DNA of 64,000 nt from Clostridiales bacterium (lineage in GTDB: Bacteria > Bacillota > Clostridia > TANB77 > CAG-508). A model generated the notes under the pieces. The model was not told the origin of the DNA, ran no database searches, and was given only the letters and a program-made list of their open reading frames with translations. Numbering within the stretch: position 1 is the stretch's first letter; each line of letters starts with the position of its first letter. The DNA lies in contig JAHZIB010000001.1 in assembly GCA_019419955.1 (NCBI GenBank), forward strand, positions 29,971-93,970, read 5' to 3'. A program made the translations under genes and the position numbers. This document shows, piece by piece, positions 8,984 through 64,000 of the stretch.

Positions 8984-10117
8984 CTAATAGTTTGTTATCA
9001 ATAAATGCTCTACATCTTTGTCATTTCTATTTTGAAAACTCACAAGATATTTTTTATCAAATGTTTTTATTTTAAATTCCTTTGTATTATATAAATTATA
9101 AATAAATTCTGTATTTTTTATAATTAGCATTATCTTTGCTTCAGTATTTTTTAAATATTCACATAATCTTACCTGATCTTTCTTACCAAATTCATTTTTA
9201 GCATAAGTTGAAAATTCTGTATCATATGGTGGATCTAAAAATATAAAATCTCCTTTTTCAGGATTTACTTTTTTTAGAAATACTTCAAAATCATCACAAT
9301 ATATTTGAGTTTGTTCCATATATGTTTTTATTTCCTTAGAGTCTATATATTCTATCTTTTTTCTAAATTCTTTTCTATTATAGCTTATTCCACCATATGG
9401 TACATTGAATTTTCCATTTTTATTATATCTAAACATTGATGCATAACAAAACTCTCTAATAAAGTAAAATATTGCTGTATAAAAAGATGTATTAATATTT
9501 AATTTTTCTGCCTCATTGTATAAATGTCTAAAATGCATATAAAATGCACTTTTAAATGCACATTCGATATTATCAAGTGTGTCTTTTTCATTCATTTGTT
9601 TTCTTTGTTTTTCAATTTTAAACATTCTATTCATCTTTGATATCAAATTTTTTACTATTTCATTTATAAAATTATCTATTTCTATATTGAAATCAGACGA
9701 TAATATTCCATTAAATTCCTCTGCATGTTTTATTACAAAAGCATATATTTTATCATTAAATTTAATTTTTATATTCTTACTTTCACTATTCATATTAAGA
9801 TCTGTACAATAGTCTCTATATATCTTTAATAACTCAATATAATTGTCTTCAACAACTTTTTCTAGTAATATCCAATTTTTATATATAGCTTTTAAGTTAC
9901 TAAAAAATTCTTTATCATTATTTTTTATACATCTATACAAGTTAATTAATTCTTCCGATTTATCATTGATTATTGATTTTTTAATATCTAAATTAAAATA
10001 CACCGCACCTCCACCAATAAAAGGCTCTATATATCTTTTTATATTACTTGGTAAATTTTCTTTTATATATGGTAATTCTTTTTCTTTTCCACCTGCCCAT
10101 TTTATTATTGGATTCAT
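8984..10117 (-). CDS. Site-specific DNA adenine (N6) methyltransferase, Dam/D12 class (alpha group)
   Basis: 377 aa. N-terminal IIKWAGGK and FIEPFIGGGAV (SAM motif) match Dam LKWAGGK and EPFVGAGSV. DPPY motif FLDPPYDTEF. About 250-aa insertion between motifs, presumed target-recognition domain. Confidence 0.9.
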   Translation of the reverse strand: MNPIIKWAGGKEKELPYIKENLPSNIKRYIEPFIGGGAVYFNLDIKKSIINDKSEELINLYRCIKNNDKEFFSNLKAIYKNWILLEKVVEDNYIELLKIYRDYCTDLNMNSESKNIKIKFNDKIYAFVIKHAEEFNGILSSDFNIEIDNFINEIVKNLISKMNRMFKIEKQRKQMNEKDTLDNIECAFKSAFYMHFRHLYNEAEKLNINTSFYTAIFYFIREFCYASMFRYNKNGKFNVPYGGISYNRKEFRKKIEYIDSKEIKTYMEQTQIYCDDFEVFLKKVNPEKGDFIFLDPPYDTEFSTYAKNEFGKKDQVRLCEYLKNTEAKIMLIIKNTEFIYNLYNTKEFKIKTFDKKYLVSFQNRNDKDVEHLLITNY

Positions 10118-10249
10118 AAAAAACTCTCCTTCATTATAACTATTTATTTTATATCATAAAATATAAATTTTAACAATAATTTATTACATATTTCTTTTGT
10201 CAATATTTTATCAAACATTTGTTTTAAATGCAATACATTTTTTATATTT

Positions 10250-10693
10250 TTAAAATTTTTTCGTTTCAAAATTTATACTATTAAAAAGATATAGTGCAAC
10301 TTTATTTTGTTCTGTCGAGTCCATTTCCATAATTTTGCTTGATACAAATATTATATAAGGATAGTTTGCAAAATTAATAGTAGTAGTTCTGTATTCACTA
10401 TTTATTTCTTTTAGTAGGTTATCAAAATATTTATACATTTCTTTTTTATCGTATTCTAAATTGGTATGGCTATAATTATCACACATACAAATTGCTAGTC
10501 TTAATTTATTTTCTAAATCCATATCTTTTATCATATCTATTACATAATTTACTTTTTCAGCATTCATAACTTTTTTATTCCTTTCCATTTTTATTTTTCG
10601 GGGGTATGGGGTGCAAATCCCATATTTGAGTTTGTGCGGGAGTACAAATTCATTGCTTGCTAGGACATAAAATTTGTATTTTTCAAAATTCAC
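10250..10693 (-). CDS. Hypothetical protein (island). Real start may be the internal Met near 10588
   Basis: ORF only. Upstream part overlaps a GC-rich palindromic stretch. Confidence 0.4.
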   Translation of the reverse strand: MNFEKYKFYVLASNEFVLPHKLKYGICTPYPRKIKMERNKKVMNAEKVNYVIDMIKDMDLENKLRLAICMCDNYSHTNLEYDKKEMYKYFDNLLKEINSEYRTTTINFANYPYIIFVSSKIMEMDSTEQNKVALYLFNSINFETKKF

Positions 10694-11118
10694 TATTTTT
10701 TTATCTGTGTATTTTTTAATAAATTTTCTTTATTTTTTTGTATTAAATCTACGCAGTCTATTATCATTTCATCTTCAATAATAGGATAATTTACAACTCC
10801 TTTTGTATAAAAATTTTCTTCTAATAGTTGTAGATATTCATTCATTTCTTGTGTAGAATATTCTTTATTTTCAATTTTTGAATGATAAAATATATAATAA
10901 TCTTCTTTTATTTTTTCTAACTCCTGTTTAGTAATTGGCTCTTTATAAATAAATCCGATGTTATTATTTTGTAAAATATCATTCAAATATTTTATATATT
11001 CTTTACTGCTTTTAGAGATAAATTCTTCTGTAAATCTTATATCTTTTATTTCAATATTGTATTTTTCATCTCTTGAAATTTCTATGAATTCCAGTAAATA
11101 AATGTATATGTTTTCCAT
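10693..11118 (-). CDS. Hypothetical protein (island), 141 aa
   Basis: ORF only. ATGA start/stop overlap with the downstream ORF. Overlaps the 3' end of the recombinase ORF. Confidence 0.4.
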   Translation of the reverse strand: MENIYIYLLEFIEISRDEKYNIEIKDIRFTEEFISKSSKEYIKYLNDILQNNNIGFIYKEPITKQELEKIKEDYYIFYHSKIENKEYSTQEMNEYLQLLEENFYTKGVVNYPIIEDEMIIDCVDLIQKNKENLLKNTQIKK

Positions 11119-11929
11119 AATTTGAATGCTTGTTTTTCTCTAAAATTATTCTCGTTGCATTCCATGTTTCTTGGTCAATTATTGGCTCACAATAGTTTTC
11201 TACTCTTAAAATATCTTGAAGTTTTCTAGCGTATTTTCCATACTCAAATATACCTATATAAATAGAATTTGTAAGTATTTTATAAACTCTATCACTTGTC
11301 CATTTTCCAGATTTTAAATAAGAATTATTATCTTTCATTACTCTTGCAATACCTCTACAAGAGTAACTTTTCCTACATAATTCAAATATTTCTTTAACAA
11401 TTTGTGCTTCAATAGGCTCTATTTCTAAATGTCCCGTTTCTTTATTTCTAGTATATCCATAAGGTGCTTTGCTAGGGTGTACCTTTTCTAAAGCCATTTC
11501 TTCTAATGCTCTTTTTGTTCTTGCTCCGATTTCTTTTCTTTCTCTTTGTCCAAAAACTAAGTTCATACCATAGAACATTTCACCATTTGCAGTTGATACA
11601 TCATAAGGCTCTAATATTAGTTCTATTTTTACATCATGTTCTTCACAGTAATTTAAAAGCCAAAATCCATCATAATTATTGCGAGTTAATCTATCTACCT
11701 TTATTGCAATTAACTTGTCTAATTTGTGCATTTTAATATCTTTTAGAAGTCTTTGCATTTCTGGTCTCATTAAATCTTTTCCAGAATGTCCTGCATCATT
11801 GTATACATCTACGATAGAATACTCACTTTTCTCACAATATTCTTTTATCATTCGTAATTGAGAATCAATAGAATAGCCATTATCTCTTTGTTCATCTGTT
11901 GATACTCTTACATAAATTCCACATCTCAT
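11066..11929 (-). CDS. Serine recombinase (resolvase plus recombinase domains), C-terminally truncated relative to large serine recombinases
   Basis: N-terminus MRCGIYVRVSTDEQ..GYSIDSQ (catalytic Ser region) followed by a recombinase domain. It ends after about 287 aa without the zinc-ribbon/coiled-coil module. GGAGG RBS before the second ATG. Confidence 0.8.
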   Translation of the reverse strand: MRCGIYVRVSTDEQRDNGYSIDSQLRMIKEYCEKSEYSIVDVYNDAGHSGKDLMRPEMQRLLKDIKMHKLDKLIAIKVDRLTRNNYDGFWLLNYCEEHDVKIELILEPYDVSTANGEMFYGMNLVFGQRERKEIGARTKRALEEMALEKVHPSKAPYGYTRNKETGHLEIEPIEAQIVKEIFELCRKSYSCRGIARVMKDNNSYLKSGKWTSDRVYKILTNSIYIGIFEYGKYARKLQDILRVENYCEPIIDQETWNATRIILEKNKHSNYGKHIHLFTGIHRNFKR

Positions 11930-12120
11930 AAAATTACCTCCCACTTATCCTGTGAATTTTTTTAGGTTTTGTATAGTAAAATTTCAAAAAAACTTAAAAA
12001 AATTTTATTTCTTTCATATATTTGCTCACAAAAGTCAACTTTTGCCCCCTTAATTTTGAAAAAAATTTTTTTATTCCTCCATATGTTTCCTAACTAAAAT
12101 GCGTTTTTGCAATCTATATT

Positions 12121-12408
12121 TTAAAATTTCTTTAATTTTATGAGAATTTGTTTTATTTCTTTGAGATTATACTTTTGTTTATATTCTTTAATATAAAAAT
12201 TCTTATTAGCTATTTCATTTACTTTATATTCGTAAATAGTAAGAGTAGAAGGATATGTAATTACATATTCAGTTGGTTCAATAAATTGTAAATTAGTAGC
12301 CCTTAAATGCTTAATTTTACCATTTTTAATTGTATAAACATAGTTTTTAATAATTTCTAATATTTCTGCATTTGGCTCTAATTCTTGTACTATTTCAAAT
12401 TCAAACAT
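12121..12408 (-). CDS. Hypothetical protein, 95 aa (island)
   Basis: ORF only. Confidence 0.35.
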   Translation of the reverse strand: MFEFEIVQELEPNAEILEIIKNYVYTIKNGKIKHLRATNLQFIEPTEYVITYPSTLTIYEYKVNEIANKNFYIKEYKQKYNLKEIKQILIKLKKF

Positions 12409-12527
12409 AAAAAATGCCCTCCTTTCTGGGAAGAGAACATTTTAGTATTTTTATGAAGTTCAATTCATCTTTTCTAAAAATGAAAAAACAACCTACAAAC
12501 CTTTATAGTTCGTAAGTTGTTAGAGTA

Positions 12528-12601
<74 letters not shown>

Positions 12602-12680
12602 ATTCTTCAATAATAAGTATAGCATTATTTTTTTATATAGTAAAGAGAAAAAAACAACTTACAGACCTTATAGTTCGTAA

Positions 12681-12766
<86 letters not shown>

Positions 12767-12900
12767 ATTTCATTTTCAGAACAGTTATTATTATAAACTT
12801 TTTAAAAGCTCTTGTCAATACTTTTTAAAAAATTTTATAAATTTTTTCTTAATACTTGCATTAGATGATATTTTGTGCTAATATAATATAGTAATTTCAT

Positions 12901-12976
12901 AGGGGTATAGTGTCAATGGTTAGCATAATGGTCTCCAAAACCACAGGTGAGGGTTCGAATCCTTCTACCCCTGCCA
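12901..12976 (+). tRNA. tRNA-Trp(CCA)
   Basis: AGGGGTA..TACCCCT acceptor stem, anticodon loop CTCCAAA. Near-identical in architecture to B. subtilis tRNA-Trp. Ends in GCCA. Confidence 0.9.
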
Positions 12977-19842: not shown

Positions 19843-20709
19843 TCAAAAGTACTTCGTTATTTCAACAACCAAATTTCCTTTTTTAGTAGTATTAAGCACT
19901 TCTCCTACTTTAAATCTCCCTTTTCCTCTAACAGTAATAAGATCATCTTTTTTCACTTCTTTTGAGCCTTTTTTAAAAACTTCATGGTTCACAAAGACTC
20001 TTTCCTCCTTGATAATTTGCAAAGCTTTTGCTCTTGAAGTTCTTAGAGTTTCAGAAAGTATGCTATCTAATCTCATTGAAGGAACAATAATATTAAAGAC
20101 TTTTGTTTTCGGTTCTTCAACATTTAATTCTTTTAGTGTAATCAACTTAAACTCAGTCTTATTAAATCTTTTTAGTTGCTTAAGTCCATCAATTACATAT
20201 TTTTCCGCTTCTTTTAGTACAATAATATCTGCTCCATCCTTACATGTTAAAATGTCTCCAATTTTTTCACGCTTGATTCCAATTTTTATAATCGCTCCCA
20301 AATAATCTCTATGGAAATATATTCCTTTAAGCTCATTTGGAAGTATTATTCTAATAACTCCAAAAATTGTATCAAGAGAAAATTGATTGTTCTTAAACAA
20401 ATCTTCTAACTTTTTTGGATATACTGCTAAAACTGTTCTTTCTGCATTTTCATACCCACCACTAGCAATATAATTATCTATTTTCAATTCTTTTATAGTT
20501 TTTTCCATCAATTGTCTTTGTGAAAGATTTAAAAAATCAGTATATTCTATTGAATTTCTTTTATTGCTTTGTTCAATTTTGTCTAATAATCTAGATACTA
20601 AAATTCTGTCTTCGTCATTAGCAGTTTCACTTAATATTCTCTGTTTATCCACTATTTTCCTACCTTCTAACATAAGTAATATATTCATAGTCATATGGGT
20701 TTTTTTCAT
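19843..20709 (-). CDS. YlmH-like RNA-binding protein with S4 domain
   Basis: C-terminal S4 domain (RLDSILSETLRTSRAKALQIIKEERVFVN). Start may be an internal Met to avoid a 50-nt overlap with dfrA. Confidence 0.7.
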   Translation of the reverse strand: MKKTHMTMNILLMLEGRKIVDKQRILSETANDEDRILVSRLLDKIEQSNKRNSIEYTDFLNLSQRQLMEKTIKELKIDNYIASGGYENAERTVLAVYPKKLEDLFKNNQFSLDTIFGVIRIILPNELKGIYFHRDYLGAIIKIGIKREKIGDILTCKDGADIIVLKEAEKYVIDGLKQLKRFNKTEFKLITLKELNVEEPKTKVFNIIVPSMRLDSILSETLRTSRAKALQIIKEERVFVNHEVFKKGSKEVKKDDLITVRGKGRFKVGEVLNTTKKGNLVVEITKYF

Positions 20710-21148
20710 TCTTAAGTCCTTGTTTTCTTTCTACTTCTTTCCATTCAGTCTCACTTAACTTTGGAAAATAGGCATCCCCATCAAACACTTTATGAATTTT
20801 AGTCATATAGACTTTATCTGCTCTTTTTATAAGTTGATTGTAAATAATTGCTCCACCAATTATAAAATTTTCCTCAGTTTCATCTATATAACTATCTAAT
20901 TCATTTATATCATTAACAATATCTACATTTTCATTATTAACGACATATTCTGAATCTCTAGTTAAAATAATATGTCTTCTATCAGGCAGCACTTTTCCTA
21001 TTGACTCAAATGTTTTTCTTCCCATAATTATTGTGTGACCAGTTGTAAGTTCTTTAAATCTTTTCATATCTTCTGGTATATGCCATAAAAGTTTGTTATT
21101 CTTCCCTATAACATTATTTTCTGAAATTGCTACTACAATACTTAACAT
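20660..21148 (-). CDS. folA: Dihydrofolate reductase
   Basis: MLSIVVAISENNVIGKNNKLLWHIPEDMKRFKELTTGHTIIMGRKT. Confidence 0.95.
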   Translation of the reverse strand: MLSIVVAISENNVIGKNNKLLWHIPEDMKRFKELTTGHTIIMGRKTFESIGKVLPDRRHIILTRDSEYVVNNENVDIVNDINELDSYIDETEENFIIGGAIIYNQLIKRADKVYMTKIHKVFDGDAYFPKLSETEWKEVERKQGLKNEKNPYDYEYITYVRR

Positions 21149-22140: not shown

Positions 22141-24213
22141 TTAATCCTCTGTCTTCAATCTCAAATATCCAAGCTCATTCCAAATGTTATACGCTAAGTT
22201 TAGCCTAAATAGCACTTTTGGCTTAGCACCAGCCCTATTTTTATCAACAACGCACGCATAATATCTTACATCTGGATTCTTAAACTTCTCTAATTCGAAA
22301 AACTTTGTATCAACCTCATTTAAAGAATATTCATACTTATTTAAGTCTTCTCTCATAATTTGTTTAATCAAACACAAAGTATCTAAAACCTCTTTAACTG
22401 TTCTACTAACAGCCAAGTCATTTATTGTTAAATTTATCGGAAGTGTCGAACTCTCCGTAAGTTGTAATGTAGAACAAATAAACATATTAAAATTTTGTGC
22501 CAAATTAGAAAGTATTGTTGCAGTTCTTTTAATTTCCTCTCCATTTCCAATATTAGCAGTATCAGTTTTTAAGGTATCATAAAAAACATACTCAATCTTT
22601 TCTTTGTAGTAATAATTCATAATAACCTTTTTTAACTCCTCATTTGTGTGGTCTGTTATATTTATGAAATAGATTGAATTATTAATTTGGTTATTTACCC
22701 AATCTGTAACAGCAATTGTCTTATTGAACTCTGAGGAAACCTTTTTTAGTCTTTCCACAAATTCTTGTCTAGTTTCACTTTCATTTTGTAAAACAAATCC
22801 TTCTTCATCAACTTTGACCTTTGTATCTTTATCTGGTCTAAACTTAAACTCCAATAGTTCCCCTTCGGTTTTAGAAAGCTTTTGCCCATGAAGTCCTTGG
22901 ATTTCAGGATTGTTTATAACCGTAGTAATTAAACAAAGTTTCATTTTTTCTTCAGACATTTCATTCGAAATAACTAGAACTTTCTTTTTATGTATAAACG
23001 CAGTATATGAGGCAATATTAATTGTAAACCTACTTTTTCCTGAGTTTGAAGGCATTGCAAAAGCCATTGTTTCACCTTTTCTTATACCTTTAAAAACGCT
23101 AGAAAGAATTGGCAAAGGTAAAGAAAGTCCATTTGTTAAATTATTTTCGCCTCTTTCTAAGAAATCAGTCAGTCCTTTGCTAAGTACAGCTTGTTTAAAT
23201 TTTTGTATTTCACTAACTTGTACAACTGCAGCTTTTACTTCATCCGCAGACATCTTATCATATAGTTCATAATTTCTAATATTCACAATTTGATCTTGTA
23301 TTTCTTTTCTAGGCTCCTCCAAATAACTCTTCCTTAAAACGCAAAGTTTTCTAAGATTATTATACACTCTCTCAGGATTATACTCTTTCATCCCAATTTC
23401 AAATTTCAACATCTGCTTTTGCTTATATGTTTCATTATTATCTACTGAAAAGTTAAAGCCTTTTTTTGCTATCTCTGGTGTGTAATTTCCACCCTCTGTA
23501 AATAAAATACTCTTATAAATATTTAACATGCTCTGGTCATCAAAATAGCATTCATTAAAAAGAATATAATATTTGACTATAAGCTTTGGATTATTTAAAA
23601 GCAAACCAACATAAGCTTTCTCTAATTTTTCATCTCTCAGCTTTTCTGGATATTGGGATTCTACCTTTTTAACTTCCTCTTTATATTTAGGTTTTATATC
23701 TCCATCTTCAAAAAAGTCATTCTTTTCCCCATTCTCATCGTCAAAGTCTTCCTCATAATAATTTTCAGTTTCAATGCCTTCATCTTCCTCATCATCCTGT
23801 TTGCTATTGTCATTACCTTCGTAACTACTATCTTCTTCTTCCAACTCATAATGCTCATTTGTTTCATTATCATATAAAGAATTATCATTCAAATCATTAT
23901 TTTTAGCTTCTGAAGAATCCTCATCTTCTTTCGTTTCCTCTGGTATAACTACTTTTTTTATTTTCTTTCTAGGCTTTTCATTCTCACTTTTTTCTCCTTT
24001 AGCGTTATTAGTATTTTTATTACTTTTTGTTTTTTTAGATACTGTAGAAACTGTGCTTTCAGAAGAATTTAATTTCCTAATTCTTTCAAGGGATTCACTT
24101 AAATTTCCAGAATCTATTAATTCTCTTATTGCCTTTATCTCTTCTTTATCTTTTCCTGCCTTCTCTAATGCATCTAAAATATTATATAATTTCTCCACAT
24201 TACTATTTGGCAT
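22141..24213 (-). CDS. DnaB-family replicative helicase paralog with a roughly 190-aa acidic N-terminal extension
   Basis: DnaB N-domain-like EKAYVGLLLNNP. Linker, then GLSLPLPILSSVFKGIRKGETMAFAMPSNSGKSRFTINIA (Walker A, H1) and VISNEMSEEKM (H1a). Residues about 60-190 are about 50% D/E. Confidence 0.8.
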   Translation of the reverse strand: MPNSNVEKLYNILDALEKAGKDKEEIKAIRELIDSGNLSESLERIRKLNSSESTVSTVSKKTKSNKNTNNAKGEKSENEKPRKKIKKVVIPEETKEDEDSSEAKNNDLNDNSLYDNETNEHYELEEEDSSYEGNDNSKQDDEEDEGIETENYYEEDFDDENGEKNDFFEDGDIKPKYKEEVKKVESQYPEKLRDEKLEKAYVGLLLNNPKLIVKYYILFNECYFDDQSMLNIYKSILFTEGGNYTPEIAKKGFNFSVDNNETYKQKQMLKFEIGMKEYNPERVYNNLRKLCVLRKSYLEEPRKEIQDQIVNIRNYELYDKMSADEVKAAVVQVSEIQKFKQAVLSKGLTDFLERGENNLTNGLSLPLPILSSVFKGIRKGETMAFAMPSNSGKSRFTINIASYTAFIHKKKVLVISNEMSEEKMKLCLITTVINNPEIQGLHGQKLSKTEGELLEFKFRPDKDTKVKVDEEGFVLQNESETRQEFVERLKKVSSEFNKTIAVTDWVNNQINNSIYFINITDHTNEELKKVIMNYYYKEKIEYVFYDTLKTDTANIGNGEEIKRTATILSNLAQNFNMFICSTLQLTESSTLPINLTINDLAVSRTVKEVLDTLCLIKQIMREDLNKYEYSLNEVDTKFFELEKFKNPDVRYYACVVDKNRAGAKPKVLFRLNLAYNIWNELGYLRLKTED

Positions 24214-24444
24214 TCTTTCGTTCCCCCCATTCTACTTTTCAAATTCTATCATAATTAGACATTTTTTACAATAAAAATTAGAATTTTTTTACTTCTCATC
24301 TTACATGATGATGGTTTTAAAAAACATTTTGCCGAAAGCCATATGTTTCTAGTCAATATTCTTGATGGATTAAAAATTATATAATATTTAATATTTTTAC
24401 TAATACCAAGCAAGATATATGTATATTAACCGTTAAAAACTTCT

Positions 24445-26280: not shown

Positions 26281-26365
26281 ACCAGATTAGTTTTCCTTGG
26301 GCTATGCATATTCGCAACGAAAAATGCACATGCTTGCTTTCGCTAATTCGCAATTTTCTTCTTTT
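26281..26365. repeat. Intergenic repeat family, copy C
   Basis: Shares a core (ttccttRggctRtgcatattcgc..cgaaaaatgcacatg..cttgctttcgctaa..caattttctt) with 59516-59615 and 59660-59770. Confidence 0.7.
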
Positions 26366-28701
26366 CACATATCATATTCATAAATTACAATTTCCTTTGT
26401 ACCAAAGTCAAACTCATCAATCTTATAATTAATATAAAAACTTTCTTCTTTGCTAAATTTTAAATTTAGCTTATCAGCATCAATTAAAACTTCTGTGGAC
26501 AAATTCATTCCTAAAGGTAATGTTTTATTAAAATTATCATAAAATATAATATTCGAATAAAACACAAGTGGTGCATTTTCTTTTATATTAATTTTGCAAA
26601 GAGATATTTTGCTCTTTTTGCTTAAAAGTTCGTGCTCAAATGCATCCCTAGGATTAATACTTAGTATATTAAGTCCTTTAAGAGACTTTTTTGCTCCCAT
26701 ACAATAAGCAGATATGTTATAAGGAGACTGAATCTTATTAAGTGCTTCCCTAATTAATAATAAGTAACTCTCTAAATTCTCTGTATAAACCTTCAAGTCT
26801 GTATCTAGATTGATATTCAAAACCTTGTATTTATCCTTTTCGATTTCTCTATGTTTTACATTATTTATTGATTTAATTTTTGTCTTGTCATCTATTAACC
26901 CACCAAATATATTAAAATCCTTACTATTAATTATTTCTATATTGTTTTCGTATTCCCTTTTTAAATTCGTTAAATCTCTGCTTAATGGATTAACCTTTTT
27001 AGTTTTTGCTTTCTCCTTCTTTACTTCTTCCTCGTCCTTTTCTATATAAATCTCAACAGCGTTGTCTTTATCCTTTTCTAATTCCTTAAATGAGTCTGGA
27101 ACTTGTTTTATCGCAAATATAGCATCAGTTTCATTTTTTGATAGTTTTCTTCTCTGCACTTCATCTACAATCTGACCTAAGTCTTCTAAATCTGTTTCAT
27201 AGTCAAAATATTTTGCCATTCTGGTCTTTTCTTTTTTTTCTCTTTCCTCGCCTTCATTCAAGTTTTGAACTTCATCCTTACTTGTAAATTTCCAAAATTC
27301 AAAAATACTTTTTTTATGTTTATCAATTTCATTAATGTATAATTCTGCATTATCAATTTTCTTAGACAAAATATCTTTTTTCGTTTCGATTGCACTTATA
27401 TCTAGATTTAGATTAGTATTCTCTTTCACGACCTCTTCAAGCTTGGTACAAATACTTATTAAATCTTCAATTGTATACTGCTGTTTCAAAATATATAATT
27501 CTTCTAATGCTTCGTCCTTTTTTTCTTCTTCTCGTTTTTCTTTAATTATTGGCTTTTTTTCTTGCCTTACTTCTTTTTTCTTCTTAAAGAAGTATTTCAC
27601 TTTTCCAAAAAAAGTCTTTTTACATTCCAAAAAAGTAGCAATTTGCCTTTGCTTTAATAAGTACTCTTCTGTTAAGTCTTCGATTATCCCCTTAAATTTA
27701 TTTAATTTTCTATTTAATTCTTTTTGCTCTTTTTCTTCATTTTTCAATCTATCAATCTTATCTAAGTATTCAACCCTTATAAATTCCGAAAGAGAATTAT
27801 ACTCTAGCTTTACATTATCTTGCCAAAACTCTAACTGACTATCCTCTCCTATTTTCGTTTCAAATCTATATTCCTCTTTAGCACCTGTTGCTAATATAAA
27901 CATCGCTTTAAGTAGTTTATAAAACTCTCTAGCCTCTTTTTTACTATATAAACTTATTGCATATGTACTTTTAATCTTATCATATACGCTAGTTATCCCA
28001 ACAATCTTTATAAACATATTTTCTTCTTTATCATAAACCTCATAAACATTTGGCCATTCCTTTGTAAAAAACCATAAATAGTTTTCTATGTCCTCAATTT
28101 CTGATTTAGTCAAAAATGACCCTGAATACTCAAGATGGCTTACTGGTGCAAAAATAAACCTAGGTTTTCTTGCTCTCGAATTTGCAATTTTTTCTTTTAA
28201 CAAATATAGTAAGGCATTATTGTCCTGTTCTTTTACAGGCACTAGCATAAAATATTTCTTTGCATAATCAGAATAGTATATCTGCCATATATAATTATTA
28301 GGATATTTTACCTCATAAGGTATTTTATCATTCAATCCCTCTTGCTCTTTTGTTATCTCTTCTACTCTTTTTATATCTAAATTTGCAATTATCTTCATGA
28401 AATTTGCAAAATTTTCTATATTTTCTTCTTTTTTTGAATTTAAGCATGCACATAGCGGAGTAGATAATTTATATTTTTCTTTCAAGTCCGTTAACCTATC
28501 TGTAGGTGTAATTAGCAATTCTATGTTTTTAATATTTATATATTTATATACTTTATATATTGTATCATCATATGCTTTAGAAGGTCTAAAATTCAAATTT
28601 TCACATTCTTTGAGAAATGTAGGCAATTTATTCAAATTTAGACCAATATATTCTAAGTTTTTTTCAATTGTTTTTTCACTTTCTTTAGTTGCTTTAGGCA
28701 T
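26365..28701 (-). CDS. Hypothetical 778-aa protein: N-terminal globular region, long K/E-rich coiled coil, C-terminal globular region
   Basis: No recognisable catalytic motifs or TM segments. About 250 central residues are heptad-like and K/E-rich. Confidence 0.7.
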   Translation of the reverse strand: MPKATKESEKTIEKNLEYIGLNLNKLPTFLKECENLNFRPSKAYDDTIYKVYKYINIKNIELLITPTDRLTDLKEKYKLSTPLCACLNSKKEENIENFANFMKIIANLDIKRVEEITKEQEGLNDKIPYEVKYPNNYIWQIYYSDYAKKYFMLVPVKEQDNNALLYLLKEKIANSRARKPRFIFAPVSHLEYSGSFLTKSEIEDIENYLWFFTKEWPNVYEVYDKEENMFIKIVGITSVYDKIKSTYAISLYSKKEAREFYKLLKAMFILATGAKEEYRFETKIGEDSQLEFWQDNVKLEYNSLSEFIRVEYLDKIDRLKNEEKEQKELNRKLNKFKGIIEDLTEEYLLKQRQIATFLECKKTFFGKVKYFFKKKKEVRQEKKPIIKEKREEEKKDEALEELYILKQQYTIEDLISICTKLEEVVKENTNLNLDISAIETKKDILSKKIDNAELYINEIDKHKKSIFEFWKFTSKDEVQNLNEGEEREKKEKTRMAKYFDYETDLEDLGQIVDEVQRRKLSKNETDAIFAIKQVPDSFKELEKDKDNAVEIYIEKDEEEVKKEKAKTKKVNPLSRDLTNLKREYENNIEIINSKDFNIFGGLIDDKTKIKSINNVKHREIEKDKYKVLNINLDTDLKVYTENLESYLLLIREALNKIQSPYNISAYCMGAKKSLKGLNILSINPRDAFEHELLSKKSKISLCKINIKENAPLVFYSNIIFYDNFNKTLPLGMNLSTEVLIDADKLNLKFSKEESFYINYKIDEFDFGTKEIVIYEYDM

Positions 28702-42933: not shown

Positions 42934-45576
42934 TTATTTATACATATTCTTATATTTTATATATACAAAAATACCTATGCCTGCAATAGTCAAAATTACA
43001 ATTCCTATTGGAATAACTCCTGCTTGCGGAATTATTCCACCTGCTGTTGTTTTATCATTATTTACACCCCCAACACTTCCATTGTTATCTGGTCTATCTA
43101 TCGTAATATCATCATCTATAACATCATCTATTGTTCCAACCATTTGATTGTCAAGATAAAATATAATAGAAGTATTTTTAGAAGGTTCCAATACAGAAAC
43201 TTTTATCTGCTCTAAACTCACATCATCTATATTTGCTACCTCTTTTATATATAAATATATTCTGTCCGAATTATTTAATTCTTCAATATTTGATATGTCC
43301 CTTGTATCCACTTCAAAGTTAATTGCAACTGTTCCATCATCCATTAAAATCTCTTCAGCATCAATCCTAATCCAGTTTTCTATATTTTCCTCTGTATCAC
43401 TACTTGATAAATAGAAATAATATGTGTAATTTGTTTCTTCATTACCATGCATTATATTAGACAATGTAAGCTGTAAATTCATATATGGTTCTTCTGGTAA
43501 TTCTTTATAAAGGTAGACTGATGCACCATTCAATTCAGTCACCATGTTTTCTAAGTCTGAAAGCATTGGCTCTACTGGTTCTTCAGGATCCGTTTTTTCT
43601 GCAACTGTAATAGCTTGTTCTGTTGTTTTATTTATTCCATTTTCTGTATATGATATTGTTACACTGGTTTGTCCTAATGTCAAATTCTTTCCATTTACTA
43701 CATCATAGCCCGTTATTGGTCTTGTAGATGAATCACTATATGTTGCTGTAACTTCCATTCCTGTATCTGAAAAGTTCTCTCCTTCAAGATAGTCAACCTT
43801 ATTAGGTGCCTTTGTTATCTCAATCTTCTCCAAATTTATATCTTCTTTAATCTCATTAGTTAAAGCTTTCACAGAAACATTTGCACTATTTTCTCCTGTG
43901 TTTTCTACATTCCAGTCTTGCCACTGATTTGCATTAAATCCCAGCTCGTTTGTATAATAACTTTCTCCCAAATTAACTTCCACATTCTTATCAGCTCTTT
44001 GATTCTCAGTCATTATCATAACATTTTCCCCTGATGTTTCCATGCTTACCGCCACTATAAATGTATCTCCAGTTAGATTAATAGGGCTATCCAGCTCTAT
44101 CACATGATATCCAGGCTCTAATGTAATACTGTTACCTGACTTAGTTTTAACCTCTTGTAAAGCAGAAAACTCGCCATTTTCGGCATTCACAAATACCTTA
44201 AAAGTAGCTTCTTGCATTGTATTTACTGCAACTTTATCAAGTAATTCTTCCTTACTTGCATCCCTATTAAACTTATTTCCAAAATATATTTTATTTCCCG
44301 AATATTCAAATGCAATTCTAGAACCTAACACATCATATTGATAAATATAATCATAATCCTTAGTTCCTGTTGCTTTCTGTATTCCAAATAACTCAGAGTA
44401 GACATTTGCATCATCATATGAAATATACATAAATCCTTTATCGCCTATTTCCATTACTATTTCATCATTCTCTATTTTCACTTTATCTGCACCATATGTA
44501 TTAGCAACCACACGTTGCATATATTCATCAGTCAAGTCATTTGGCGAATATACCCCTATCCCATTAAGTTCTTCTTCATTATTCGCATAAAACTCTTGTT
44601 TTAACTGTGACAAATTTTCTCTTATTTCACTCCCCCATGAATTTTTTACTATCCATGCACCATTATTATTAGGTTTATTATCTGCCTTAAAATTATCTAT
44701 GCTGTAATTATCATCCCAACCAATAATTGCAACACCATGGTCTATTGGATATTCTTCACTATTACTACAATAAATTGCACCAGTATTATTGTTATATGCA
44801 TCTGATAAAATCTGTGCACCATGAACCGCAGCATAAATTCCACCATAAGTTGTAATATGCTGTTTCATTTTTAACATTAGAGCATCTTTTTCCATATCAT
44901 CTAAATCTTCGAACATAACCGTATCATACAATGTAGAAGTAACTGTTTTATTTTGTATGTCAGAAATATCAATATCATTCATATTATCCTCAAATGGCAT
45001 CTCGGTCTCATTAATCGCTCCCATCCCATTTGATAAATATGTCTCCGCATGTAAGAAATTTCCACCTTCAGCAACTTTTCTCGTAAATCCATATGGGTTT
45101 ATTTTACTATTGTTAAATTCTCTTGTTATTCCATACATCATATGTCTTTCAGAAAAATCATATATATTGTTAGTATTACCATCTCTATAATCCTTCAAAG
45201 CTATATTTGTTTCTAATGCTCCAATTGAAGCAAATGCCCAGCAAGAATTTGTGCTTGCCTGGCTTTTAATCGCAACATTATTTGGAATTACATTTTGCAA
45301 GGTATATGCTGAATCAACAGCACTTCTAACAGCATTTACACTCTTTAAAATATTAGTTCCTCCAATAAATTTGTTGTTTCCGCCCGAATAACTCGCATCA
45401 TACATGCTAGGTTCAACAACCCTATTTTTCTCTTCCTCACTCAAATTCAAGTATGCCTTATACTCATCTGAAAATTCTACAAATTTCAAATCTCCAGCTA
45501 CAGCACTTGCACTTGTACATAAGCATACTAAGCTAAATACCATTGTAAGTATCACTATTTTTAGTCTCTTTTTCAT
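42934..45576 (-). CDS. Secreted papain-like (C1 family) cysteine peptidase, 880 aa, with Ig-like domains and a C-terminal membrane anchor
   Basis: Signal peptide. QASTNSCWAFASIGALE (active-site Cys). Later His/Asn region. C-terminal hydrophobic helix plus KYKNMYK. Confidence 0.8.
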   Translation of the reverse strand: MKKRLKIVILTMVFSLVCLCTSASAVAGDLKFVEFSDEYKAYLNLSEEEKNRVVEPSMYDASYSGGNNKFIGGTNILKSVNAVRSAVDSAYTLQNVIPNNVAIKSQASTNSCWAFASIGALETNIALKDYRDGNTNNIYDFSERHMMYGITREFNNSKINPYGFTRKVAEGGNFLHAETYLSNGMGAINETEMPFEDNMNDIDISDIQNKTVTSTLYDTVMFEDLDDMEKDALMLKMKQHITTYGGIYAAVHGAQILSDAYNNNTGAIYCSNSEEYPIDHGVAIIGWDDNYSIDNFKADNKPNNNGAWIVKNSWGSEIRENLSQLKQEFYANNEEELNGIGVYSPNDLTDEYMQRVVANTYGADKVKIENDEIVMEIGDKGFMYISYDDANVYSELFGIQKATGTKDYDYIYQYDVLGSRIAFEYSGNKIYFGNKFNRDASKEELLDKVAVNTMQEATFKVFVNAENGEFSALQEVKTKSGNSITLEPGYHVIELDSPINLTGDTFIVAVSMETSGENVMIMTENQRADKNVEVNLGESYYTNELGFNANQWQDWNVENTGENSANVSVKALTNEIKEDINLEKIEITKAPNKVDYLEGENFSDTGMEVTATYSDSSTRPITGYDVVNGKNLTLGQTSVTISYTENGINKTTEQAITVAEKTDPEEPVEPMLSDLENMVTELNGASVYLYKELPEEPYMNLQLTLSNIMHGNEETNYTYYFYLSSSDTEENIENWIRIDAEEILMDDGTVAINFEVDTRDISNIEELNNSDRIYLYIKEVANIDDVSLEQIKVSVLEPSKNTSIIFYLDNQMVGTIDDVIDDDITIDRPDNNGSVGGVNNDKTTAGGIIPQAGVIPIGIVILTIAGIGIFVYIKYKNMYK

Positions 45577-55499: not shown

Positions 55500-56789
55500 C
55501 TAAACTTCTTTCTTTGTCAACATAATTATATTGTCCATAATTTCTTTTGTTGCTTCATCCAATTTTTCTTTTCCGTATTTGCTTAAATCTATAGGTTCTC
55601 CATAATTCACATATACTTTACTAAAAGGTTTAAATGTCCCATGAATTCCAACAGGTATTACCTTTACATCTGCTCTTATTGCCATAAAAGCAGCACCATT
55701 TTTCGCTTTTAAATTTCTCTCCATTCCATTACGTGTCCCCTCAGGAAAAATTCCTAAAAGTTCTCCATTTTTTAGTACTTTCAAACATCTTTTCATTGCA
55801 TCAATATCTTGCATATTTCTCTTGATTGGTATTGCATCAAACAAATGGCCAAGCCACATAAGTATTCCATGTGTAAATAAATCTTCTTTTGCAACAAAAT
55901 TAACTTTTCTCTTATTAAATAACACAATTGCTGCAGCATCTAAATAATTTATGTGGTTACAACATAGAATATACGCCCCTTTCTCAGGTACTTTCCCACT
56001 AACTCTTACTCTGAATGCAATTTTATAAACAATATTTAAAACTACTTTAATTATTTTTCTAATAAACTTTTTCCAGGCAGTTTCTTTTCTTATTCTATAT
56101 ATTTTACTTTGTAATTTTTTATCCTGTTGCTTTTTTTTTATTATTTTTGTAATTTCTTCCTCTACTTGTTTTATAGTTAAATTAGTTGTATCAATAACCT
56201 CTGCATCATTTGCTACTTTTAATGCTCCTATTTCTTTCGATTTATCGTTCTCATCTCTCTTTTTTATATTTTCAAGAACTTCCGCATAAGACATATCAAT
56301 TCCCTTTTCCTTGTTCTGAGCATATCTTCTTTTTGCTCTCTCCTCTACATCTGCATCAAGGTATATCTTCAAATCAGCATTTGGAAATACATATGTGCCA
56401 ATATCACGACCTTCCATTATAACATTTTTTCCTTCTGCCATTTTCCTTTGAAGGTTTACCATACTTAGTCTTACTTCCTTAATTGAAGAAACCTGAGACA
56501 CAAGACTAGAAACTTCTTTTGTGCGAATTTTACTTGTTACATCTTCATCATTCAAAAATACTAATTGCTTTCCATCTTCTCTTTTAATTTCGATTTTGAT
56601 GTCTTTTAATAATTCTTTTATTTTGTCTAATTCATTAGGCTCTATTCCCTTATTTAGCATATCTAACGTAACCGCTCTGTAAGTTGCTCCTGTATCTACA
56701 TTTACAAAATTAAACTTTTTGGCAAGAAGCTCTGTTACTGTTCCTTTGCCTGTCCCTGCTGGGCCATCTATTGCTACTACAAATGACAT
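55500..56789 (-). CDS. cmk: Cytidylate kinase fused to 1-acyl-sn-glycerol-3-phosphate acyltransferase (Cmk-PlsC)
   Basis: Cmk N-half (IDGPAGTGKGT). PlsC C-half (CNHINYLD HX4D, FPEGTR). Single uninterrupted frame. Confidence 0.85.
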   Translation of the reverse strand: MSFVVAIDGPAGTGKGTVTELLAKKFNFVNVDTGATYRAVTLDMLNKGIEPNELDKIKELLKDIKIEIKREDGKQLVFLNDEDVTSKIRTKEVSSLVSQVSSIKEVRLSMVNLQRKMAEGKNVIMEGRDIGTYVFPNADLKIYLDADVEERAKRRYAQNKEKGIDMSYAEVLENIKKRDENDKSKEIGALKVANDAEVIDTTNLTIKQVEEEITKIIKKKQQDKKLQSKIYRIRKETAWKKFIRKIIKVVLNIVYKIAFRVRVSGKVPEKGAYILCCNHINYLDAAAIVLFNKRKVNFVAKEDLFTHGILMWLGHLFDAIPIKRNMQDIDAMKRCLKVLKNGELLGIFPEGTRNGMERNLKAKNGAAFMAIRADVKVIPVGIHGTFKPFSKVYVNYGEPIDLSKYGKEKLDEATKEIMDNIIMLTKKEV

Positions 56790-56877
56790 TTTTTTCATTC
56801 CTTTCAAGAAACCATTTACTTTGTGTGGTTTCATATACTATATTATATTTTATTATTTTTATATAAAACTACATTCC

Positions 56878-62810: not shown

Positions 62811-64000
62811 TTATAGTGACATCATATTACTTGGATTTAATGCAATTGTTATTCTAGTATTTTTCTGTTTTAAACTATAGTACTTATTTATTGTACTTTC
62901 AATTAATTGTATTATTTCATGTGAAAATTTACACTTCACAAGTATTCTCCATCTATATTTATTCTTTATTTTATTTATTGGAGAGGGTAGAGCTTTATAT
63001 AATATTATTCCTATATTTTCTTTTATTACTCTACTTTTTAAATATGCATGTATTGTTTCAGATATACTTTTTGCTTCTTCTTCATTTGTAGAAGTAAACC
63101 CAATTAATATTATATCGCAAAATGGAGGATATTTCAATTGTTTTCGCATAGCAATTTCCGTATTATAAAACAACTCGTAATTTTGTTTTTTAGCACACTC
63201 TATACTAAAATTATCTGGATTATAAGTTTGGATTATAACTCTTCCTTTTTCCTTATCTCTTCCAGCTCTACCCGCGACTTGTGTTAAAATTTGAAACGTC
63301 TTTTCGTTTGCTCGAAAATCATCTATATTAAGACTACCATCTGCTGCTACAACTCCAACCAAAGTCACATTTGGAAAGTGATGTCCTTTTACAACCATTT
63401 GAGTTCCTATTAAAATATCAATATTTTCATCTCTAAACCTTTCTAATATTTGCTCATGCGAATTTTTTTTAGTTACGGTATCAATATCCATTCTAATTGT
63501 ACTAGCCTCTGGAAATAGTTTGTTTATCTCATATTCCAATTTCTGTGTACCTGTTCCAAAATATCTTATTTGCTTACTTCCACATTCTGGGCAAATAGAC
63601 AATAAGCTCTCCTCATAGCCACAGTAATGGCATTTCAATTTGTTGGTATTATAATGGTAAGTTAAGTTTACATTGCAATTCTTACATTTTACTGTGTATC
63701 CACAATTCCTACACATTACGAAAGTAGAAAATCCACGCCTGTTCAAATAAAGTATTGTTTGTTTTTTATCTTTTAAGTTCTTTTCAATCTCCTCATATAA
63801 CCTAGTGCTTATCATGGACTTATTTCCTTTTGCAAGTTCCTCTCTTAAGTCTATTACCTCTATTTCTGGAAGTGTTGCATTATTAGCTCTATTTTTTAGT
63901 TCTAGCATAATAATCTCATCATTTTTTGCCCTGTAATAAGTCTCTAAATCTGGAGTAGCACTCCCTAACACCAATGGGATGTTATGCTCCCTTGCAATAA
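62811..64000 (-). CDS. priA: Primosomal protein N' PriA, 5'-partial (continues beyond window end)
   Basis: Zn-binding CxxC cluster (CRNCGY..CKNCN..CHYCG..CPECG). Helicase C-terminal motifs QVAGRAGR. Confidence 0.9.
   Translation of the reverse strand, partial: IAREHNIPLVLGSATPDLETYYRAKNDEIIMLELKNRANNATLPEIEVIDLREELAKGNKSMISTRLYEEIEKNLKDKKQTILYLNRRGFSTFVMCRNCGYTVKCKNCNVNLTYHYNTNKLKCHYCGYEESLLSICPECGSKQIRYFGTGTQKLEYEINKLFPEASTIRMDIDTVTKKNSHEQILERFRDENIDILIGTQMVVKGHHFPNVTLVGVVAADGSLNIDDFRANEKTFQILTQVAGRAGRDKEKGRVIIQTYNPDNFSIECAKKQNYELFYNTEIAMRKQLKYPPFCDIILIGFTSTNEEEAKSISETIHAYLKSRVIKENIGIILYKALPSPINKIKNKYRWRILVKCKFSHEIIQLIESTINKYYSLKQKNTRITIALNPSNMMSL

Follow-up and report, generated by a model that had tools for sequence, protein, structure and literature searches.

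The replicative helicase DnaB is regarded as a universal, vertically inherited component of the bacterial replisome. The position of dnaB beside rplI is conserved in Firmicutes, and the gene order in Clostridia is rplI-lonC-dnaB. Replication proteins of viral origin are known in cellular lineages: phage-derived DnaC/DnaI loaders have replaced DciA, Twinkle is a T7 gp4-like helicase in mitochondria, and viral loader replacements have reportedly occurred in Vibrionaceae. Here we describe a DnaB-family helicase gene on the minus strand of a 64,000-nucleotide stretch of a Clostridiales bacterium chromosome (assembly GCA_019419955.1, contig JAHZIB010000001.1; hereafter, "the window"). The original prediction for this gene had described a second DnaB-family helicase with a poly-acidic N-terminal extension; that observation was partly confirmed, and the interpretation placed on it is partly supported. 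Unlike its nearest non-chromosomal relatives, which are phage helicases, the window helicase is encoded by a conserved chromosomal gene, and it may serve as the replicative helicase of an uncultured order of gut bacteria, TANB77.

Architecture and sequence relatives of the helicase

The helicase open reading frame (ORF) encodes 690 amino acids; it starts with ATG, and a G-rich ribosome-binding site precedes it. The protein has 5,932 homologous 90%-identity clusters, indicating that the ORF is real rather than a chance ORF. The features of the gene from the DnaB-type N-domain onwards are as follows.

22141–24213, minus strand: complete gene for a predicted phage-type DnaB-family helicase (ORF list; stop codon at 22141–22143)
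23194–23646, minus strand: DnaB-type N-terminal helical domain with hairpin, residues ~190–340 (hhalign, TIGR00665 alignment, AlphaFold2)
23119–23193, minus strand: linker region with linker helix, residues ~341–365 (AlphaFold2 helix 348–354 between the domains; aligned to the E. coli DnaB linker)
22144–23118, minus strand: RecA-like ATPase domain, residues ~366–690 (invariant catalytic residues; Pfam DnaB_C)
22960–22962, minus strand: catalytic Glu, E418
22576–22578, minus strand: Walker B Asp, D546
22234–22236, minus strand: R660

A DnaB N-domain, a linker helix and a RecA-like domain had been read from the sequence, and all three were borne out, along with the quoted motifs, by hhalign, AlphaFold2, Foldseek and the positions of the motifs. 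Comparison of the helicase family profile with E. coli DnaB by hhalign gave 95.7% probability (E 1e-8), with residues 192–668 aligned to residues 28–450 of the E. coli protein. The N-domain accounts for residues 192–333 of that alignment (E. coli DnaB 28–165) and includes the EAE..LG motif (E198, G203); the alignment to TIGR00665 likewise starts at residue 195. In the AlphaFold2 model, residues 190–690 are confidently predicted, and the N-domain is all-helical with high predicted local distance difference test (pLDDT) scores. The top Foldseek matches in the PDB are full-length DnaB from Geobacillus, Aquifex, E. coli and Vibrio, together with T4 gp41 and SPP1 G40P, at E-values of 1e-17 to 1e-14 over ~515 columns. 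Pfam DnaB_C matches at 33.8 bits, against a cut-off of 27, and we observed no match to Pfam PF00772 at E <= 0.01. The RecA-like domain bears a family-specific insertion of ~50–60 residues around residues 440–510. On profile alignment and predicted structure, the helicase thus has the full DnaB architecture of N-domain, linker and RecA-like domain.

The Walker A motif AMPSNSGKS lies at residues 386–394 (nucleotides 23032–23058) and SNEMS at residues 416–420. We compared the catalytic residues of 25 diverse members of the helicase family, chromosomal and phage. Walker A G392/K393, the catalytic E418, Walker B D546, the sensor Q584 and the trans-acting K658/R660 Lys/Arg finger are invariant in 25 of the 25. 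Conservation of the Lys/Arg finger implies an oligomeric active site, and the invariance of all catalytic residues makes it very probable that the helicase is an active, oligomeric ATPase. By homology, it would be expected to act as a hexameric 5'-3' helicase of the DnaB family, in superfamily 4, driven by NTP hydrolysis. The same invariance argues against the suggestion that the helicase might be a helicase-loader decoy.

The architecture and catalytic set are those of canonical DnaB (E. coli DnaB and Firmicutes DnaC; TIGR00665, PF00772 plus PF03796). By contrast, the sequence is not that of a canonical DnaB. Identity is ~13–15%, and the window helicase misses the cut-off of each curated DnaB model by over 350 bits, scoring 26.7 bits against TIGR00665 (cut-off 385), 15–28 bits against the NF DnaB equivalog models (cut-offs 737–898) and 30 bits against the TIGR03600 phage_DnaB model (cut-off 499). 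An orthologue with a short N-terminal extension (locus L036) also scored below the curated equivalog cut-off, at 34 bits. The best phmmer match of the helicase in the PDB had an E-value of 0.66. When 1.84 billion cluster representatives were searched exhaustively with phmmer, only 433 proteins matched at E <= 1e-3, indicating that canonical DnaBs, which are vastly numerous, are not reached from this sequence. RecN, PriA and ThyA from the same genome all pass their curated equivalog cut-offs, and the divergence is therefore specific to the helicase gene. The window helicase further differs from canonical DnaB in the RecA-domain insertion, in an extra N-terminal module and in the lack of an adjacent rplI.

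Outside the chromosomal clade, the closest sequence relatives of the window helicase are helicases of large Firmicutes and gut phages (phrog_19), with 21–38% identity over residues ~190–687. PHROG phrog_19 matches the helicase at E 3e-24 over residues 40–681, and phmmer/HMMER searches tie it to phage members at E-values of 1e-40 to 1e-75, and to no canonical DnaB. These searches place the helicase in a phage-type DnaB-like lineage. The distant members are phage helicases of ~510–560 residues that lack the N-terminal extension. Annotated relatives are found in Geobacillus virus E3, in Psychrobacillus and Lysinibacillus phages and in ~130-kb C. difficile (Clostridioides) phages, as well as in large extrachromosomal elements of Bacillus and Clostridium botulinum. 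At least 211 IMG/VR contigs, mostly of 110–205 kb, carry relatives. The gene for one relative, P0138, is part of a phage replication module that also encodes an intein-bearing UvrD, Gp157, a sigma factor, a RecJ-like DHH protein, UDG and a split DnaE. The phage helicases share with the window helicase the RecA-domain insertion and all of the invariant residues. They differ in having 0–18 residues before the N-domain, in lacking the N-terminal module described below, and in being placed in phage replication modules. Median identity is 35% within the phage members, compared with 70% within the chromosomal clade; the far greater diversity of the phage members suggests transfer from phage to cell.

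Chromosomal context and N-terminal extension

Close homologues of 640–800 residues number in the thousands in gut metagenomes, and relatives are encoded in the genomes of at least 495 GTDB species. All of the best 80 GTDB matches are uncultured gut metagenome-assembled genomes of human, chicken, rabbit and mouse origin, labelled "Clostridia bacterium" or "Clostridium sp.". The GTDB genomes carrying the gene include the isolate UMGS1663, whose genus, UMGS1663, is a member of the order TANB77 (PMC11680825). Genomes with the helicase gene are reduced, with contigs of 1.5–1.9 Mb. Identity of the helicase core is 70–87%, as compared with 75% for ThrRS, 74% for PGI, 70–73% for FolD and 85–89% for ThyA in the same species pairs. 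Hence, rather than a sporadic extra paralogue, the gene is core in at least 495 species of one gut clade, with conservation at the level of ThrRS and PGI.

The window is an ordinary bacterial chromosome segment with ~29% G+C and nearly all genes on the minus strand, among them ftsY, efp, dprA, folD, ylmH, thrS, pgi, trxB, dapF, typA, cmk, fmt, def and priA. The neighbours named in the original prediction were confirmed: downstream of the helicase gene are thyA and dfrA, and upstream is recN (467 bits on TIGR00634, cut-off 408). A functional meaning for this cluster is not borne out by the relatives, since the order helicase-(radical SAM)-thyA-dfrA is kept only among the closest of them and recN adjoins the helicase gene only in the window species. 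In other genera, the neighbours are genes for peroxiredoxin, fructose-bisphosphate aldolase, NFACT and a UvrD-type helicase, and the context is always housekeeping. Two downstream ORFs (~309 and 232 residues) were considered as a possible loader operon; this candidate was rejected because their products are fructose-bisphosphate aldolase and peroxiredoxin.

The G+C content of the helicase gene equals that of its neighbours, indicating that the gene is fully ameliorated, and we observed no integrase or phage genes flanking it within the window. Four IMG/VR contigs have 66–67% identity to the window helicase; in each, a host-type helicase gene lies at the extreme edge of the prophage prediction and is followed by an integrase-like gene and then a cI-like gene. 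The housekeeping contexts, the conservation of the core and this prophage-edge placement indicate that the helicase gene belongs to the core genome, is inherited vertically and is under strong constraint. It is non-mobile, and it does not have the patchy distribution of a defence gene. The proposal that the helicase is mobile-element or phage-derived therefore holds for the phage-type lineage; by contrast, the gene is not on a mobile element, the contexts are housekeeping ones, and the distribution covers at least 495 species. Nor was there support for a role in defence or anti-defence: the helicase has no PADLOC match and its neighbours are thyA, dfrA and recN.

Several species have prophage or integrase genes just downstream of the helicase gene. 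In the IMG/VR loci L101–L103, an integrase-like ORF of 357 residues and a cI-like repressor gene follow it, and large serine recombinase genes are found downstream in L029, L039, L041, L048, L073 and L074. The region 3' of the helicase gene may be a favoured integration site. In two species (L050, 3603–3803; L051, 13319–13519), the intact helicase gene is followed 1.8 kb later, after a gene for an ORF6N-domain protein, by a second fragment that corresponds to helicase residues 587–687 at ~50% identity. A small element seems to have inserted at the 3' end of the helicase gene, duplicating or replacing the terminus.

The N-terminal extension and the region upstream of the gene comprise the following features.

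24214–24444, minus strand: upstream intergenic region with a promoter-like site and a ribosome-binding site (consensus matches only)
24058–24213, minus strand: predicted three-helix module specific to the chromosomal clade, residues 1–52 (AlphaFold2, module hidden Markov model)
23941–24042, minus strand: Lys-rich basic block, predicted disordered, containing RKKIKKVVIPE, residues ~58–91 (composition, pLDDT ~30)
23686–23940, minus strand: acidic block with interspersed Tyr/Phe, predicted disordered, residues ~92–176 (composition, pLDDT ~30)

The 230-bp spacer between recN and the helicase gene contains TTGTAA-17-TAGAAT with an upstream TG at 24271–24243, and GGGGGG lies 8 nucleotides ahead of the helicase ATG; both are consensus matches only. 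There is no LexA/Cheo box anywhere in the window, and SOS control of the helicase gene was rejected for this reason.

The extension had been described as poly-acidic over 190 residues. Its length of ~190 residues was confirmed; by contrast, it is not uniformly acidic but consists of three parts: a neutral module, a Lys-rich block and an acidic block, with residues 54–182 predicted to be disordered. The module is neutral and is modelled by AlphaFold2 as helices at residues 2–18, 23–34 and 38–50, with pLDDT of 93–96. TANB77-type copies of the helicase start with the same ~50-residue module, M..KIYELLNNIPVTEENEELIEEIKEDL..G.Y..ALEKI. In addition to the window, 89 of 93 other chromosomal loci match a hidden Markov model of the module, as against 0 of ~79 phage loci; the model matches no other protein. 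Of the four chromosomal loci without a match, one has a truncated gene, one has a variant and two have sister-lineage genes. The module has no Pfam match and no fold match in the PDB with E < 5. Of the two features that, in the original prediction, orthologues of a sole replicative DnaB would have, one is seen and the other is not: the orthologues share the N-terminal module but are not at the rplI locus.

The basic block has 11 K/R in 30 residues and differs in length between relatives. The acidic stretch, which had been put at roughly 130 residues, about half of them Asp/Glu, is in fact ~85 residues long, with 39 D/E in 91 residues (43%), a net charge of ~-30 and a peak of 17 D/E in 30 residues. 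An origin by repeat slippage was rejected, since the acidic tract contains no meaningful tandem repeats at the DNA level. In most species, 68–100 residues precede the DnaB N-domain and their net charge is near zero. By contrast, the window genus and a few scattered lineages have 140–304 residues before the N-domain, with a net charge of -20 to -55, and a sister lineage has hyper-acidic extensions without the module (net -125 and -194). The more acidic of these belongs to a copy of 889 residues (L093, 10001–12670), which has a 385-residue hyper-acidic N-terminus (net -194) and no three-helix module; its gene lies between sigE and sigG in an ftsA-ftsZ-spoIIGA-sigE-sigG cluster, and in the related genomes L097–L100 sigE and sigG are adjacent.

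Within the genus-level group, in which the total length of the helicase ranges from 643 to 804 residues, identity is 88% in the ATPase domain, 80% in the N-domain, ~60% in the module and 31% in the disordered part. These alignments mark the acidic tract as a fast-evolving, dispensable elaboration, and the three-helix module as the conserved novelty of the family. Because the acidic tract is lineage-specific and fast-evolving, and because most species have a short and near-neutral extension, the tract cannot define the function of the helicase.

Possible roles in chromosome replication

We favour the reading that a captured phage-type helicase serves as the replicative helicase of the clade, with the N-terminal module as its host adaptor, and we hold this proposition to be evenly balanced. 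In this scheme, the ancestor would have been the replicative helicase of a large Firmicutes phage. It would have been captured by the ancestor of the uncultured gut Clostridia clade (GTDB order TANB77 and relatives), have become a vertically inherited core gene and have taken over chromosomal replication from the ancestral DnaB. The three-helix module would have been gained after capture, and may tether the foreign helicase to a component of the host machinery, for instance the loader/initiator, the primase or the clamp-loader. The basic-then-acidic disordered insert would be a later, dispensable addition in the window genus that may tune interactions or autoinhibit DNA binding. TANB77 and its relatives would then have no canonical DnaB, as a result of xenologous replacement, and a helicase with a three-helix docking module would run their chromosomal forks; the chance that this is so seems to us neither better nor worse than that of the contrary.

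Several circumstantial observations favour replacement. The gene is core in at least 495 species with reduced genomes and is conserved at the level of ThrRS and PGI, and the new domain arose exactly when the gene became chromosomal. In addition, when CheckM is run with Clostridiales markers, even complete TANB77 genomes are scored as only ~80% complete (PMC9606305), indicating that many standard markers are missing or unrecognisable.

That the helicase is a second one was an assumption of the original prediction; we observed no other DnaB homologue in the window or in 87 chromosomal loci, where a search with E. coli DnaB returned only the helicase itself, as a weak match, and there was no RplI, RpsF or RpsR homologue in the same set. 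The surroundings in which canonical dnaB would be expected were also read in the clade. A search with LonC placed lonC between tsaE-tsaB-rimI and rplS. With an RpsF query from the sister-lineage locus, the context was rpsF-ssb-rpsR, followed by a two-component system, dut, carD, dnaG and sigA, and there was no rplI or dnaB within 10 kb. Extension of the window contig upstream revealed priA, gmk, rpoZ and remA, and no dnaB.

A number of points weigh against a replicative role. The search for canonical dnaB covered the window and ~20 kb around each copy, and a canonical dnaB may lie elsewhere in these genomes. The helicase gene is outside the usual rplI-dnaB position, and no loader, primase or other replisome gene is adjacent to it in the loci examined. 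The primase of the sister lineage retains a standard DnaB_bind domain. Replacement of the helicase is also a demanding step, as the newcomer needs to fit the host primase, loader and tau, and we know of no bacterium without canonical DnaB.

The main alternative is that the helicase is a second, accessory DnaB-family helicase: a domesticated phage-derived core gene that coexists with canonical DnaB and acts in fork restart, recombination/repair or region-specific replication, with the N-terminal module recruiting it to the specialised pathway. The location outside the rplI context, the lack of adjacent replisome genes, the ordinary DnaB_bind domain of the sister-lineage primase and the retention of canonical DnaB by all bacteria studied are as expected for an accessory helicase, and in the window species the adjoining gene is recN. 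However, the recN adjacency is confined to that species and the thyA adjacency to close relatives, and the window lacks a LexA box. Moreover, conservation at the level of an aminoacyl-tRNA synthetase across at least 495 species with reduced genomes would be unusual for a redundant helicase. We consider an accessory role possible, at something like one chance in three.

A vertically inherited, fast-evolved bacterial DnaB orthologue, with no capture at all and with phages having taken the helicase from such hosts, would also be consistent with the clade-wide distribution over at least 495 species and the host-like composition, and TANB77 markers are often divergent (PMC9606305). However, the genome's other informational proteins do reach their equivalog thresholds, the sequence diversity of the family resides in phages, and the annotated relatives infect Bacillus-group hosts and Clostridioides rather than TANB77. 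In addition, HMMER joins the helicase to the phage members, at E-values of 1e-40 to 1e-75, and not at all to canonical DnaB. We regard this origin as unlikely. Least probable, and already largely refuted, is that the gene belongs to a mobile element or prophage, or encodes a helicase-loader decoy or a defence/anti-defence factor: its phage-family ancestry, the prophages and recombinase genes found downstream in several species and an acidic tract that could mimic DNA are outweighed by the housekeeping neighbours, the lack of flanking integrase or phage genes in the window, the confinement of the host-type gene to the prophage-prediction edge in the four high-identity "viral" contigs, the lack of a PADLOC match, the invariant catalytic residues, a distribution that is core rather than patchy and the absence of the acidic tract from most orthologues.

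Other features of the window and comparison with known systems

Several features of the window and of a neighbouring locus do not involve the helicase gene. At 6345–12976 there is a low-G+C (22–25%) island, with two tRNA-Gly(tcc) genes and one tRNA-Trp gene next to it. The island encodes a SMEK-domain protein (PADLOC Aga_REase-PNTD, E 4e-31), a TdeIII-type restriction endonuclease, a Dam-like N6-adenine methyltransferase and a serine recombinase, and is probably an integrated restriction-modification or defence island. Just upstream of recN (26365–28701, minus strand), a 778-residue Lys/Glu-rich protein is encoded for which Pfam, NCBIfam, PHROGs and PADLOC gave no match; of the loci compared, only those of the window species have it. 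A single 444-residue ORF (55500–56834, minus strand) fuses cytidylate kinase and PlsC-type acyltransferase domains, an unusual fusion, and a stand-alone cmk is found separately, further upstream on the window contig. At 42934–45576 (minus strand), an 880-residue protein with papain-family C1 peptidase and lectin-like domains is probably a secreted or surface protease.

The window contains only the C-terminal 387 residues of PriA. In the same species, just past the window end at 64000 (L181, 7150–9406), priA is called as overlapping genes of 255 and 516 residues, which suggests either an assembly error or a frameshift, programmed or otherwise. The chromosomal dihydrofolate reductase gene (20660–21148, minus strand) overlaps the ylmH ORF by 50 nucleotides. 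Its best model is the DfrD/G/K trimethoprim-resistance family, at 161 bits against a cut-off of 300; because this score is far below the cut-off, the gene should not be called a resistance gene.

Acidic disordered tails are known in the SSB C-terminal tip, T7 gp4 and T7 gp2.5. The acidic block of the window helicase is likewise a D/E-rich, predicted disordered segment with interspersed aromatics, on what would be a replisome protein. By contrast, it is internal, lying between two folded parts and following a basic block; it is also far longer than those tails, and most orthologues lack it.

We found no report of the helicase family or of its N-terminal module in the searchable literature. If the preferred reading is correct, TANB77, an entire order of gut bacteria that are abundant, uncultured and of noted clinical interest, depends on a phage-type helicase for replication, which would help to explain the low standard-marker scores of complete TANB77 genomes. 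The clade would also provide a natural system for studying how a small added domain wires a foreign helicase to the host primase, loader and clamp-loader. Even if canonical DnaB coexists with it, the helicase would be an undescribed component of the replisome or of repair: a second DnaB-type helicase that is part of the core genome and has an N-terminal domain of its own.

Viral displacement of replication proteins, known for loaders and for mitochondrial Twinkle, would in the case of a captured replicative helicase extend to the bacterial helicase. The route proposed for the window helicase is the same as in those systems, with a phage replication protein becoming fixed in a cellular lineage. 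To our knowledge, no case of helicase replacement in a free-living bacterial order has been described. Unlike the loader displacements, the protein replaced would here be the helicase itself, and the lineage in which the phage protein became fixed would be a free-living bacterial order.

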